Assembly (NCBI RefSeq): GCF_024700885.2
Contig: NZ_CP117016.1
Length of the DNA stretch: 64,000 bases
Source of the DNA: Escherichia coli
GTDB lineage: Bacteria > Pseudomonadota > Gammaproteobacteria > Enterobacterales > Enterobacteriaceae
Direction: 5' to 3' (one strand)
Part shown: piece by piece, positions 40,608-62,193 of the stretch
Layout of the letters: every line of letters begins with the position of its first letter
Position numbering within the stretch: the stretch's first letter is position 1
The notes under the pieces: generated by a model
What the model was told of the DNA's origin: nothing
The model's input: the letters and a program-made list of their open reading frames with translations, nothing else
Databases searched by the model: none
Translations under genes and position numbers: made by a program

Positions 40608-42051
40608 TGTACTGACCCCAAAAAGTTGGACAGTTAAACACGAGGCATATAGGTCTGATTCCGATATTCAATTGGAGTCAGACCTTTTAATTTCAGGCTA
40701 ATTCTTCTGCTGTTGTAGTATTCAATATATTCCGTAACAGCATCCTTCAGTTCGCTTATATTACTGAACTCATCAAGATAAAAACACTCCGACTTTAAGG
40801 TTCCAAAGAAACACTCCACCACAGCATTATCCAGACAATTGCCTTTTCTGGACATGCTTTGTTTAATACCATGTTCTTTAAGGATATTTTGATATCTTCT
40901 CATACGATACTGCCATCCCTGGTCAGAGTGCAGAACAGGATGCTCGTGAGGATTAAGCATTTTTGAATGCCTGATCGAGCATATTCTCAACCATGTTCAT
41001 CACTGGTCTTTCCGAAAGGCTGTAAGAAATAACATCATTGTTGAAGAGATCTATTACTGGAGACAAATACAGCTTGCGCCCATTGACTGCAAATTCAGTA
41101 ACATCGGTAACCCACTTCTCGTTTGGCCGCGTAGCCTTGAAATCTCTTTGGAGAACATTGGGGGCGGTTTGCCCTACCTCTCCTCTGTAAGAGCGGTATC
41201 GCTTGACCTTAATCGCTGCCTTAAGTGAGAGGGTTCCCATCAGGCGCTGAACAGCTTTATGGTTAATCTGTTTCCCTTCTCGATGAAGAGACAGCGTTAC
41301 CCTACGGTATCCGTATCGGCCTCTATTCTCATGATAAATCTCACCAATACGCTTTTTAACGTCCGCATACTTGTCAGGCTTGCTGAGAGCCTTTAGATGG
41401 TAATAAAACGTACTGCGCGGTATCTCCGCAGCCCTGAGAAGCTCATCAAGAGGATAAAACTGCCTTAGCTCGTTGAGTACTTTCACTTTTTCGTGGAATG
41501 AGCTAAGGCTTTCAGCTTTTTTAGATACACAAGCCGCGTTTCAAGAAATCGAACTTGCCTTTCAAGATCCTCAATGCGTCGGTCTTTTGACAGCTCCAAT
41601 GCTGATGCCGCTTTTTCTGGATCAACTGATATTGCAATGTTTCTTTTGGTGCCAATCTTGAGCGCGCGTAAACCAGCTTCTCCGCGCTCTTCATAAACCT
41701 TCAGCCACCTGGCTACAGAACCACTACCAGCAAGCATAAAGTGAGCAGCAGCCTGATTAAGGGACATGTGCTGCTCGATCACAGCTTTCACGACCTTAAT
41801 ACGCAACTCTGGATCAGCACTAACACCTTTAGGTTTGGGAATTAAACCTTTTTCTCCATGTTTTTCATAGAGGGCAACCCATGTCCTGACCTGGATTCGG
41901 GGGGCACCAAAACGTGCCGAGATGATCCTGTAACCATCATCAGTAGTGAAGTAGTGATTCACGACTTCAAGGCGCTTTTCAAAAGGGTATTTTGGCTTTG
42001 ACATATCAGGGGCTATTCCATTTCATCGTCCAACAAAATGGGTGCAGTACA
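40608..42051 (-). mobile_element. IS150 (IS3 family) with frameshifted insK, inserted in iroN
   Basis: 1444 bp; ends tgtactgacccc.. and ..gggtgcagtaca; flanked by 3-bp target duplication AAC (40605-40607, 42052-42054). InsJ 41483..42004 (MSKPKYPFEKRLEVVNHYFTTDDGYRIISARFG..); InsK split into 40953..41486 and 40634..40990. Confidence 0.9.
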
Positions 42052-42783
42052 AACCTGTATCAATCCAGTGAAGGCTATCTGCTCTACTCGAAAGGCAATG
42101 GCTGTCCAAAAGATATTACATCAGGCGGGTGCTACCTGATCGGTAATAAAGATCTCGATCCGGAAATCAGTGTCAATAAAGAAATTGGGCTGGAGTTCAC
42201 CTGGGAAGATTACCACGCAAGTGTGACCTACTTCCGCAATGATTACCAGAATAAGATCGTGGCCGGGGATAACGTTATCGGGCAAACCGCTTCAGGCGCA
42301 TATATCCTCAAGTGGCAGAATGGCGGGAAAGCTCTGGTGGACGGTATCGAAGCCAGTATGTCTTTCCCACTGGTGAAAGATCGTCTGAACTGGAATACCA
42401 ATGCCACATGGATGATCACTTCGGAGCAAAAAGACACCGGTAATCCTCTGTCGGTCATCCCGAAATATACTATTAATAACTCGCTTAACTGGATCATCAC
42501 CCAGGCGTTTTCTGCCAGCGTCAACTGGACGTTATATGGCAGACAAAAACCGCGTACTCATGCGGAAACCCGCAGTGAAGATACTGGCGGTCTGTCAAGT
42601 AAAGAGCTGGGCGCTTATTCACTGGTGGGGACGAACTTCAATTACGATATTAATAAAAATCTGCGTCTTAATGTCGGCGTCAGTAATATCCTCAATAAAC
42701 AGATCTTCCGATCTTCTGAAGGGGCGAATACCTATAACGAGCCAGGCCGGGCTTATTATGCCGGAGTTACCGCATCATTCTGA
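42052..42783 (+). pseudogene. iroN: iroN 3' portion downstream of the IS150 insertion
   Basis: NLYQSSEGYLLYSKGNGCPKD..SNILNKQIFRSSEGANTYNEPGRAYYAGVTASF is the TonB-dependent receptor C-terminus with terminal aromatic residue; reading frame continuous with fragment 40449..40607 across the IS. Confidence 0.85.
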
Positions 42784-42827
42784 TCGTAGTGTTTCAGGCG
42801 CACTGCCCGTGTAAAAGCGGGCAGTGT

Positions 42828-43785
42828 TTAGTGGCTTAACTCATGACAACCTGCTGTGTAATTTGCGTTTTCACCACTGATATCTAACAGTGCCTGGCGA
42901 AAGGAGGCATTAAACATTGGCCCGTGTCCCAGGTTGGGGAAATCCCAAAATACGGCATTGACGCCTTTATCTTTCAGTATAGTGAGGGGGGGGATAAATT
43001 TTCGACAGCACCCCGACAGCATGCGTTTCCCGGTTATCACCCTGTGTCGCCGAGCCTTCCATTATCGCCAGGTGTTTGGCGAAGAATTGCAGAGGCTCAA
43101 CCGCCGTAACGCGGCTTAGCAAAGCATCATAACCTCTGCCCAACGACGGGCTGGCGCTGTAGTACGACCGGAAGTAAGAGGAGGACAGCCAGGAATCCAG
43201 CACGAAGAGGCCGCCGTAGGAGTGCCCCCATAAGCCGCGGCGTTGCCGATCGATATTCAGTCCCTGTTCCACTTTTGGGGCAATACGCGTTTCCAGTAAC
43301 TGGCGGAAGTTGTTGCTGCCACCACTCTTACGGCTAAAACGCCCTGAGTGGAGATCTGTTTTTCTGCTTTCTGTTGCTGGCATATAGTCGTAAGCCCTGC
43401 TGTTGAGATCGAAAGGGAGGTTGGTCTGATACCCGACAGCCACGATCACTGGCGGTGTTTTTTCTGACAATTGTTTGAGCAGTTCGTCATCCAGGCGGTC
43501 CATAACTGCGTTACCGTCAAGCATATATAAAATCGGGTAACCCGATGCCGGTGCGGTTGTATTCGGCACGGCCGTCCATACCCGATAATGGCGTGTGCCA
43601 TCGACAGAGTCGAAAGAGGTGGCGCTGAAATGGTAAAACACGGAGCCTTTATCGGCTATATTCGGCCCCAGTGGCCGCATATCCGGCTTCGCATAAACTT
43701 GCGCACTACAGATAAGGGTGAGGCAAGAAAGATGAAAGAAAATCGCTTTATGCGGGCGTGTTGAGCGATACTCGCGGGCATACAT
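42828..43785 (-). pseudogene. iroE: iroE (periplasmic salmochelin esterase) with frameshift at a poly-G/C tract
   Basis: 272-aa ORF with esterase motif GHSYGG ends at 42967; the remaining C-terminus (TILKDKGVNAVFWDFPNLGHGPMFNASFRQALLD..) continues in another frame (ORF 42828..43040) across the G7 run at 42995..43001. Confidence 0.7.
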
Positions 43786-60675: not shown

Positions 60676-60775
60676 ATCATACAAATGTCAGCGCCAGTGA
60701 TATAAGACGGTAACGGTCAAACATCGTGGCGTTGACACAAATGAGTGAGCAAGAGCCGTATGACGCGAGGGTGTC

Positions 60776-60979
60776 ATGTACGGTTCCGTGAGCAGCCGGG
60801 GGGGGGGAAATTCTCTCCGGCTGACTCGACTCGCAGTTTCTGACAGCGGTGGCGAACATGCGGCGGTGTTGTACTCGCTGATCGGTACATGCCGTCTAAA
60901 CAATGTGGAACCAGAAAAATGGCTGCATTACGTCATTGAACATATCCAAGACTGGCCGACAAACCGGGTACGCGATCTG
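60776..60979 (+). mobile_element. IS66-family transposase C-terminal fragment
   Basis: ..SDSGGEHAAVLYSLIGTCRLNNVEPEKWLHYVIEHIQDWPTNRVRDL matches the IS66 TnpC C-terminus and continues the 53333..54079 fragment with only a few residues missing. Confidence 0.75.
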
Positions 60980-62193
60980 TGATCCTACCCACGTAATATG
61001 GACACAGGCCTAAGCGAGGTTCTTGTTTTCAAATTGTTCCGGACTGAGGCCGCCACACCAACTGTGCCGCCGCCACCGATTGTAATCACATTCGATATAA
61101 TTAAACACCGTTGCCCGCATTATTTCCCGGCTGATAAAGTGTTCTCCATGGATACATTCCACTTTCAGCGAATGAAAGAAGCTTTCCACGCAGATTATGC
61201 CGCTTCAGTTGCGCCTGATAATCTGCTGAACAGTACTGGCCTCCACGGTCCGTGTGAACGATAACGTTCCGGGGCCTCTTACGCCGCCACAGCGCCATCT
61301 GCAGGGCATCGCAGGCCAGTTGCGCCGTCATGCGTGGCGACATTGACCAGCCAATAACGGCACGTGACCACAGGTCAATGACCACTGCCAGATACAGCCA
61401 GCCTTCATCTGTACGTAAGTGCGTGATGTCTCCTGCCCACTTCTGGTTCGGGCCACTGGCGTAAAAATCCTGCTCCAACAGATTTCCTGACACAGGCAGG
61501 CCGTGTGCGCGGTAGCTGACCGGGCTGAACTTCCGGGAGGCCTTTGCCCTCAGTCCCTGACGGCGCAGGCTTGCCGCCACGGTTTTTACGTTAAAGGGGT
61601 AACCCTGAGCACGCAGTTCATCCGTCAGGCGTGGGGCACCGTAACGCTGTTTTGACCGGGTAAAAGCCGCGAGGACAACGCTGTCGCAGTGTTGGCGGAA
61701 CTGCTGACGCGTGCTTATCCTTGTCCGCCGCTGACACCACGTATACCAGCCGCTGCGGGCCACCCGGAGCACGCGGCACATTGCTTTGATGCTGAACTCA
61801 GCCTGATGTTTTTCAATAAAGACATACTTCATTTCAGGCGCTTCGCGAAGTATGTCGCGGCCTTTTGGAGGATAGCCAGCTCTTCATCCCGTTCTGCCAT
61901 CTGGCGTTTGAGACGTGCAATCTCGGTAGACATCTCCAGTTCACGTTCAGAAGACGTCTGCTGATTTTGCTGTTTACTGCGCCAGTTGTAGAGCTGTGAT
62001 TCATACAGGCTGAGTTCACGGGCTGCGGCAGTAACACCGATGCGTTCAGCAAGCTTCAGGGCTTCACTGCGAAATTCAGGCGAATGCTGTTTACGGGGTT
62101 TTTTACTGGTTGATACTGTTTTTGTCATGTGAGTCACCTCTGACTGAGAGTTTACTCACTTAGCCGCGTGTCCACTATTGCTGTGTAAGATCA
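60980..62193 (-). mobile_element. IS3 with small internal deletion in insF, inserted at the end of the IS66 fragment
   Basis: Ends tgatcctacccacgtaatatggacacaggcc (60980..) and ..ccactattgctgtgtaagatca (..62193); 3-bp direct repeat CTG on both flanks. insE 61829..62137 (MTKTVSTSKKPRKQHSPEFRSEALKLAERIGV..) intact; insF 61101..61832 loses frame after ..LKRHNLRG, with the remaining C-terminus ([24 protein letters not shown]) in another frame. Confidence 0.9.

Follow-up and report, generated by a model that had tools for sequence, protein, structure and literature searches.

Pathogenicity islands typically carry partial transposases and insertion sequence (IS) elements as remnants of stepwise assembly, and that such remnants mark this assembly is already textbook knowledge (PMC7545054); the serX islands of extraintestinal Escherichia coli are listed in the same paper. 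Here we analysed the mobile elements in a 64-kb stretch of E. coli DNA (the window), and in particular those of the segment 40608..62193, whose limits are the exact outer ends of an IS150 and an IS3 element. The genomic island that holds this segment resembles SHI-2, the serX islands of CFT073 and UTI89 and the afa-8/deoK island of AL862 in being mosaic, bounded by a 3' fragment of a tRNA-Ser gene and strewn with IS remnants. The likeness extends to content: salmochelin genes, Ag43, an Afa-type operon and a deoK-like operon. It differs from them in that its salmochelin cluster has itself decayed, and in that an Afa-type operon is found where the serX islands in PMC7545054 carry S pili. Overall, the region is very probably the scar tissue that mobile elements left in a mosaic island.

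Results

Inventory of mobile elements

Annotation was taken from the Prokaryotic Genome Annotation Pipeline (PGAP) record of the MLI114 chromosome (NZ_CP117013.1, 3216397-3280396, reverse strand), which is 100% identical to the window; the pseudogenes that it flags agree with those found here. Element names are based on the PGAP labels and on K-12 references, and genome counts refer to 5426 complete E. coli genomes. The window contains at least 12 IS copies or fragments and two group II intron fragments, as follows.

40608..42051, minus strand: IS150, full length, with both terminal repeats, an AAC duplication in iroN, intact insJ and frameshifted insK
60980..62193, minus strand: IS3, with both terminal repeats, a CTG duplication, intact insE and a 44-bp deletion in insF
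59664..60683, plus strand: ISEc18-like IS481-family element, 1020 bp, with an intact transposase gene at 59704..60675 and ends TGTGTGATTCATAG.../...CTATGAATCATACA
52400..53305, minus strand: fragment of a different IS481-family member, without its left end and the first ~56 transposase residues
53306..54061, plus strand: IS66 fragment 1, the 3' part of tnpC and the right terminal repeat ...GGTGCGCTTAC ending at 54061
60831..62259, plus strand: IS66 fragment 2, which IS3 divides into the final ~150 nt of tnpC (60831..60979) and the right end at 62194..62259 (...GAGCCGCTTAC)
38989..39144, minus strand: IS66 remnant 3, a right end that comprises the terminal repeat ...GAGCCGCTTAC and the final ~95 nt of tnpC, which contain an in-frame stop; unannotated
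59200..59663, minus strand: group II intron 3' fragment 1, in which the maturase/HNH region of the encoded protein and RNA domains V-VI remain
60740..60830, plus strand: group II intron 3' end 2, consisting of domains V-VI and directly abutting IS66 tnpC
46447..46491, minus strand: probable IS21-family terminal-repeat remnant (TGTCTGCCAGCACCAGTGATATAAGACGGTAA...) at the iroC breakpoint; unannotated
60686..60713, plus strand: probable IS21-family terminal-repeat remnant of 28 nt, 2 nt from the IS481-family element; unannotated
46492..46650, plus strand: IS630-family 3' fragment of ~155 bp (PGAP), 88-93% identical to the 3' ends of IS630-family transposase genes
13600..14403, plus strand: IS1-family relic, outside 40608..62193, with GGTAAT... 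repeats at both ends
63385..64000, continuing to 64242 in the genome, minus strand: IS903-like IS5-family relic, outside 40608..62193

Only one of these copies has an intact transposase gene, and 11 of the 12 IS-derived features are defective, in agreement with the original prediction that most IS copies are disrupted. Its list of elements was incomplete: the IS481 fragment, the IS630 fragment, two of the IS66 remnants, both IS21 ends and both intron fragments had not been listed.

IS150 and the salmochelin cluster

The IS150 copy aligned end to end with K-12 IS150 (positions 1-1443 to 42051..40608; 1444 versus 1443 nt) at 98.9% identity, with 15 substitutions. The sole indel is an extra T at window position 40959, which is element position 1093 and falls in insK codon 176, away from the programmed frameshift site; the insK frameshift proposed earlier is therefore real. 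Beyond the extra T, insK reads ...AFKNA*, with the stop two codons on at about residue 178 of 283. The truncated InsK is without D188 and E224, two of the three catalytic residues, and insK is not intact. The region of the programmed −1 insJ/insK frameshift is unchanged and insJ is open. The target duplication, AAC, lies at 40605-40607 and 42052-42054, and iroN of an intact plasmid iro cluster has a single AAC. The window copy thus shares with K-12 IS150 the 1443-bp architecture, the TGTACTG...CAGTACA ends, insJ, the A-AAA-AAG region and a 3-bp target duplication; it differs in the extra T, through which InsK, and with it the InsJK transposase, ends short of two catalytic residues.

The element sits in a salmochelin cluster whose remains right of it span 42052..46456. 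Its parts, assigned from PGAP and from alignment to the intact plasmid iro cluster (the first from alignment), are:

40451..40607, plus strand: internal piece of iroN, left of IS150
42052..42783: 3' piece of iroN
42828..43785: iroE, frameshifted
43870..45099: iroD, intact
45203..46456: iroC, 5'-truncated and with an internal deletion

The 5' end of iroN is gone (the first ~1292 nt are absent relative to the intact cluster), and iroB was neither annotated by PGAP nor detected in the window by the alignment. The cargo of the island is thus decaying along with its mobile elements, with iroN and iroC truncated, iroN also split by IS150, and iroE frameshifted.

IS3

The IS3 copy is flanked by CTG at 60977-60979 and 62194-62196. 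Relative to K-12 IS3A it has one gap, of 44 nt (IS3A positions 1004-1047), within insF, as the original prediction had claimed; outside the deletion the two are 99.6% identical. The endpoints are perfect 10-bp direct repeats (CTGCGTGGAA, IS3A positions 998 and 1042) and the junction lies near 61187. The deletion takes insF residues 216 onward, including the catalytic glutamate E231, and shifts the frame, so that the D-D-E set is incomplete. The window copy resembles K-12 IS3 in its two terminal repeats, insE and the 3-bp target duplication, and differs in the deletion, an allele that is also widespread at a cobU-linked locus. Alignment to K-12 IS150 and IS3 could have revealed intact transposase genes and miscalled frames; instead, both lesions stand.

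In strain EC24, the same island segment carries no IS3 but a single CTG (empty site) in uninterrupted IS66 sequence. The IS3 insertion in the island is therefore a real and relatively late event.

IS481-family elements

The ISEc18-like element had been singled out earlier as the one copy that looks intact, and this was borne out: its reading frame (59704..60675) is open, matches the family profile end to end and is enclosed by terminal repeats, though the copy is without a target duplication. The 323-aa product scored 253 bits against NCBIfam NF033577 (cut-off 224; positions 2-284 of 284), matched Pfam rve and rve_3, and has the D-D-E motifs MDTCK, QTDRG and KVERS. The ends, set by comparison with two other copies, are inverted repeats of ~25 nt with one mismatch; counting 3 flanking nt, the arms are 28 nt long and 93% identical. 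Compared with ISEc18, the transposase has the same length and is 92% identical, the terminal repeats are the same and the nucleotide identity is 91.9%. The window element differs in being a diverged variant, single-copy per genome, without target duplication.

No target duplication was seen between its flanks, TTTGATG and AATGTCA; on plasmid pSTEC299_1, GATAAAA flanks a close relative on both sides, a duplication of 7 bp. The flanks are unrelated to each other: on the left the opposite-strand intron fragment (59200..59663), on the right the 28-nt IS21-family terminus. They point to later rearrangement. The element is present in a median of one copy per genome, copies of at least 99% identity occur in only ~40 records, about as many as bear the island, and in EC24 it is without its left ~700 bp.

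The second IS481-family member (52400..53305) is a fragment whose 282-codon frame is otherwise open and covers positions 57-283 of 284 of the NCBIfam IS481 profile. It is ~91% identical to ylbG, a relic annotated across many E. coli genomes (the K-12 derivative BW25113 among them), and the positions 52400 and 53305 are limits of homology.

IS66 remnants and group II introns

The IS66 family is represented by three remnants, each consisting only of the 3' part of tnpC and the right end. They resemble the family (ISCro1-like elements and relatives) in tnpC homology and in a GTAAGCG-type terminal repeat at all three right ends; unlike the tnpA-tnpB-tnpC elements, no copy in the window has tnpA, tnpB or a left end. 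Fragment 1, the truncated IS66 of the original prediction, has lost its left end, tnpA, tnpB and ~680 nt of tnpC and, by alignment to a reference element, a further ~176 bp internally; its tnpC (53333..54010) covers only positions 133-346 of 387 of the NCBIfam IS66 profile, which confirms the truncation. Fragment 2 covers positions 350-386 of that profile and is ~91% identical to an ISCro1-like tnpC. Remnant 3 matched 60887..60980 (88%) and 62208..62265 (81%) when the window was compared with itself by BLAST.

The abutting profile positions 346 and 350 raised the idea that 53333..54010 and 60833..60982 are one tnpC split by a 6.8-kb insertion. This was rejected because fragment 1, itself internally deleted, closes with a separate right end at 54061, and fragment 2 is a different, ISCro1-like element.

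Both group II introns are 3' remnants; the reverse-transcriptase domain and the 5' end are absent from each, so neither is a full intron. Fragment 1 matched Rfam RF00029 at 59235..59314 (53.8 bits), Pfam GIIM and positions 287-353 of 353 of TIGR04416, and no close full-length relative was found in E. coli. PGAP gives its 150-aa maturase tail (59195..59647) as intact, but the protein is incomplete, and the 3' end of its frame runs into the Rfam domain V-VI match. Intron end 2 matched RF00029 at 60751..60830 (50.9 bits). Its junction with tnpC also occurs on a plasmid of enterotoxigenic E. coli (88.5% identity), which indicates that an intron once inserted in the tnpC of IS66 fragment 2. That the intron fragments on either side of the IS481-family copy are inverted copies of one intron was considered and rejected, as they have no mutual similarity.

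IS21, IS1 and IS903 relics

Self-comparison revealed a 28-nt repeat in inverted orientation (46462..46489 versus 60686..60713). A 20-mer scan of representative genomes identified it as the terminus, with variable flanks, of a multi-copy element in Yersinia pestis and other Enterobacterales. The matching Y. pestis elements encode IstA and IstB, and for this reason the remnants, which are 28-45 nt long and without ist genes, were tentatively assigned to the IS21 family; we take them to be IS100-like.

The degenerate IS1 and IS903 that had been placed in the segment are real and degenerate, but both lie outside it; within 40608..62193, tblastn found no IS1 or IS903 homology. The first is not IS1 itself, as it has no nucleotide match to K-12 IS1 and is a distant family member, with 34% and 38% protein identity to K-12 InsA and InsB (tblastn; frame 2, then frame 1). 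Its InsA-like frame contains an in-frame stop and has lost a zinc-finger cysteine. No stop interrupts the InsB-like frame, where ITRDNRSSY aligns with the MTDGWPLY stretch of InsB. The last 12 nt of IS1A match 14392..14403. On sequence grounds, it is an IS1-family member by its InsA/InsB' homology, the −1 arrangement of its frames and its ends. PGAP labels it 'frameshifted; internal stop' in both lineages checked, MLI114 and ATCC 25922, and it is found at one locus in 1033 genomes. The IS903-like relic shares 79% identity with IS903B over 878 of ~1057 reference positions, and the alignment has 12 gap openings. Its protein homology comes in three overlapping pieces over two frames, and ~180 bp (the transposase N-terminus and the left end) are absent.

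Island context and turnover in sister strains

The window begins with putP-efeUOB-phoH, followed by the island. The start of the island is marked by two tandem 98-bp repeats (9856..9953 and 10036..10133) with a tyrosine integrase gene downstream. The two copies match each other perfectly, and each ends in the tRNA-Ser 3' terminus (TGGCGGTGAGGGGG...) and has a terminator-like hairpin; they are probably duplicated attachment sites from tandem island integrations. No intact tRNA gene was found within the 64-kb window. Beyond its end, the island continues with type I restriction-modification genes, DarTG and Ag43, a content that, with the iro genes, is like that of the serX islands in PMC7545054. 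The island is a mosaic at a serX/serW-type attachment site, with salmochelin remnants, an Afa-type adhesin operon and Ag43 as cargo.

About 38 of the 5426 genomes hold at least 80% of the stretch 40000-62500. In KOr021, an additional intact IS3-family element lies within the IS481 fragment, giving a size increase of ~1.3 kb; the same increase in this stretch was seen in at least four other genomes. The iroE gene is frameshifted in MLI114 and intact in TW01221. Insertion and deletion thus continue in sister lineages (EC24, KOr021 and TW01221).

The original prediction had taken the region to be old and undergoing decay rather than active transposition. Decay of both IS elements and cargo holds, and the IS1 relic at its single locus in 1033 genomes fits an old residue; the near-intact IS150 and IS3, the occurrence of their alleles at other loci (see below), the empty site in EC24, the new IS in KOr021 and the half-deleted state of the IS481-family copy in EC24 make the contrast with active transposition too simple.

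The same alleles in other genomes

The independent assembly of TW01221 has the identical extra T and the identical IS3 deletion junction in an island that differs at 94 of 22,500 sites. Since they are identical in independent assemblies, the lesions of IS150 and IS3 are inherited mutations and not read errors.

Diagnostic 41-mers were built so that every 28-nt seed spans the lesion. The IS150 41-mer with the extra T, hereafter +T, occurred at 47 places in 45 genomes. Two of the copies sit elsewhere with their own target duplications: one at the hokA-glyS locus of strain WP2-W18-ESBL-10 (AAG; orientation opposite to that of the K-12 copy there), the other inside a relE/parE toxin gene on plasmid pCFSAN004179G (CTG). 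The three IS150(+T) copies have the extra T and two single-nucleotide polymorphisms (SNPs) in common, but their other SNPs partition them in mutually incompatible ways, which indicates recombination among IS150 copies.

The IS3 deletion-junction 41-mer was more frequent, at 564 places in 530 genomes, with 21 of the places on plasmids. Most of the places are a fixed ggt'-php'-...-cobU locus, where the chromosomal copies sampled lie between a truncated phosphotriesterase-related gene and cobU. The window copy has one SNP in common with the cobU-locus and plasmid copies examined, and their 1214C change is absent from it. No target duplications were present at the cobU-locus and plasmid copies.

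The lesions of IS150 and IS3 may therefore predate the arrival of these elements in the island (mobilisation in trans), or reflect gene conversion or, for IS3, recurrence at a slippage hotspot; because the same alleles occur at other loci, decay in place is not required for either lesion.

Neighbouring genes

A chaperone-usher operon of the Afa/Saf type (46923..51391) encodes a chaperone, an usher, an AfaD-family invasin and a 171-aa candidate adhesin without a family match; an orphan open reading frame of 115 aa (51917..52264) follows it. The two operons, this one and the deoK-like operon at ~35.6-39 kb, are reminiscent of the afa-8/deoK island of AL862, which was reported at pheV, unlike the site in the window.

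Between the right end of IS66 fragment 1 and the intron fragment lies a five-gene cluster of ~29% GC (54203..59135). The products are a MacB/Lol-type permease, a TolC-like outer-membrane protein, a weak HlyD/MFP-like adaptor, an ATPase of the LolD/bacteriocin-exporter type and an Lnt-like carbon-nitrogen hydrolase. The cluster looks like a foreign tripartite exporter, as predicted from these similarities. That it is composite-transposon cargo between the two IS481-family elements was considered and rejected, since these elements share no nucleotide similarity.

A weak tRNA-like sequence with a CAU anticodon loop (39683..39750; Rfam 30.7 bits, missed by ARAGORN) adjoins an IS66 end remnant and a match to the small RNA STnc100 (40169..40383). 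It appears to be a 5'-degenerate pseudo-tRNA, which we take to resemble ileX/ileY. According to the genome annotation, ~17050..25870 encodes a 1652-aa AAA-domain protein and its 478-aa partner, a primase fragment of a TOTE conflict system and an inovirus Gp2-type protein; it looks like a defence- or conflict-system neighbourhood in the island. Finally, a direct repeat of ~330 bp (15026..15352 versus 15492..15829, 73% identical) in the region of a YfjI/DUF3987 gene suggests a partial gene duplication.

Discussion

The reading of the region as scar tissue of a mosaic island is based on the observed lesions, target duplications, nesting (an intron and IS3, both in IS66 fragment 2), inheritance and lineage-specific gain and loss. 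In this scheme, IS elements and group II introns would have landed at the joints between cargo modules and within one another. IS150 would have been disabled through a single-base insertion, and IS3 and IS66 fragment 1 through slippage deletions between short direct repeats. The three IS66 remnants, the IS481 and IS630 fragments, the IS21 ends and both introns would have been truncated via later insertions and adjacent deletions, and the IS1-family and IS903-like relics would be products of long neutral drift. Because nothing in the region would need them to work, the elements could persist as pseudogenes until deleted. Judged by their sequences, the copies would be transpositionally dead by themselves; which came first in each case, lesion or insertion, is likewise inferred.

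Several findings sit uneasily with such passive decay. The IS150 +T allele and the 44-bp-deletion allele of IS3 are both found at other, independent loci. Both elements, moreover, keep what is required in cis (terminal repeats, orfA and the frameshift signal), and the transposase of intact copies could move them. A single lesion separates each from an intact element, and the divergence from the active K-12 copies is only 1.1% (IS150) and 0.4% (IS3).

These findings leave some room, though clearly the smaller share, for the alternative that the +T form of IS150 and the 44-bp-deleted form of IS3 circulate as non-autonomous or leaky derivatives, defective on arrival and moved in trans. In the case of IS150, the frame could also be restored if lysine tRNA on rare occasions slipped by +1 on the AAAAA run at TTCAAAAATGCTTAA. 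The spread of the +T 41-mer over 47 places in 45 genomes, with two independent insertions that have their own target duplications, is what such a derivative would produce, as is that of the IS3 junction over 564 places in 530 genomes, 21 of them on plasmids; the window copies of both elements have intact ends and target duplications. The SNP patterns of the +T copies are incompatible, however, and gene conversion could have spread the lesion after insertion. The IS3 deletion lies at perfect 10-bp direct repeats, a classic site of recurrent slippage; the window copy does not have 1214C, and the deleted copies at the cobU locus and on plasmids are without target duplications. IS3-family transposases act preferentially in cis, which also weighs against mobilisation in trans.

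It is very improbable that the defective IS150 and IS3 were kept as a domesticated function, in which the small regulatory protein from insJ or insE damps the active copies. Both genes are open (173 and 99 aa) and their upstream regions and frameshift signals are intact, but InsJ has four amino-acid changes, and eight of the IS150 substitutions are in neither of the other +T copies, which looks like relaxed constraint; the remainder of the IS nest is plainly junk.

That the copies are intact and the lesions artefactual can be dismissed: although orfA and orfB of IS150 and IS3 normally have to be joined by a −1 ribosomal frameshift, so that two overlapping frames are expected and a programmed frameshift might be misread, and although the extra base of IS150 adjoins a run of five A, which might suggest a sequencing error, the natural frameshift regions are unchanged and the lesions lie far downstream (IS150 position 1093, IS3 positions 1004-1047), the extra base is a T and not an altered length of the A-run, PGAP labels the window copies 'frameshifted' but the intact copies in EC24 and KOr021 'programmed frameshift', and identical lesions in dozens of independently sequenced genomes refute an artefact.

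With the region read as scar tissue, the value of the analysis is mainly one of annotation: the salmochelin cluster and nearly all mobile elements of the island are predicted to be dead, and previously unannotated remnants (the IS21-family ends, the third IS66 end and the intron-in-IS66 junction) have been added. The order of events is useful for reconstructing how serX-type islands were assembled. The presence of two defective alleles at unrelated E. coli loci makes trans-mobilisation, gene conversion and slippage hotspots in the IS3 family testable. We consider it rather doubtful that the lineages of IS150(+T) and deleted IS3 keep spreading to new sites through the transposase of intact relatives or, for IS150, through leaky +1 slippage. 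If they do, they would be a bacterial counterpart of autonomous/non-autonomous transposon pairs, in elements that are thought to be strongly cis-acting.

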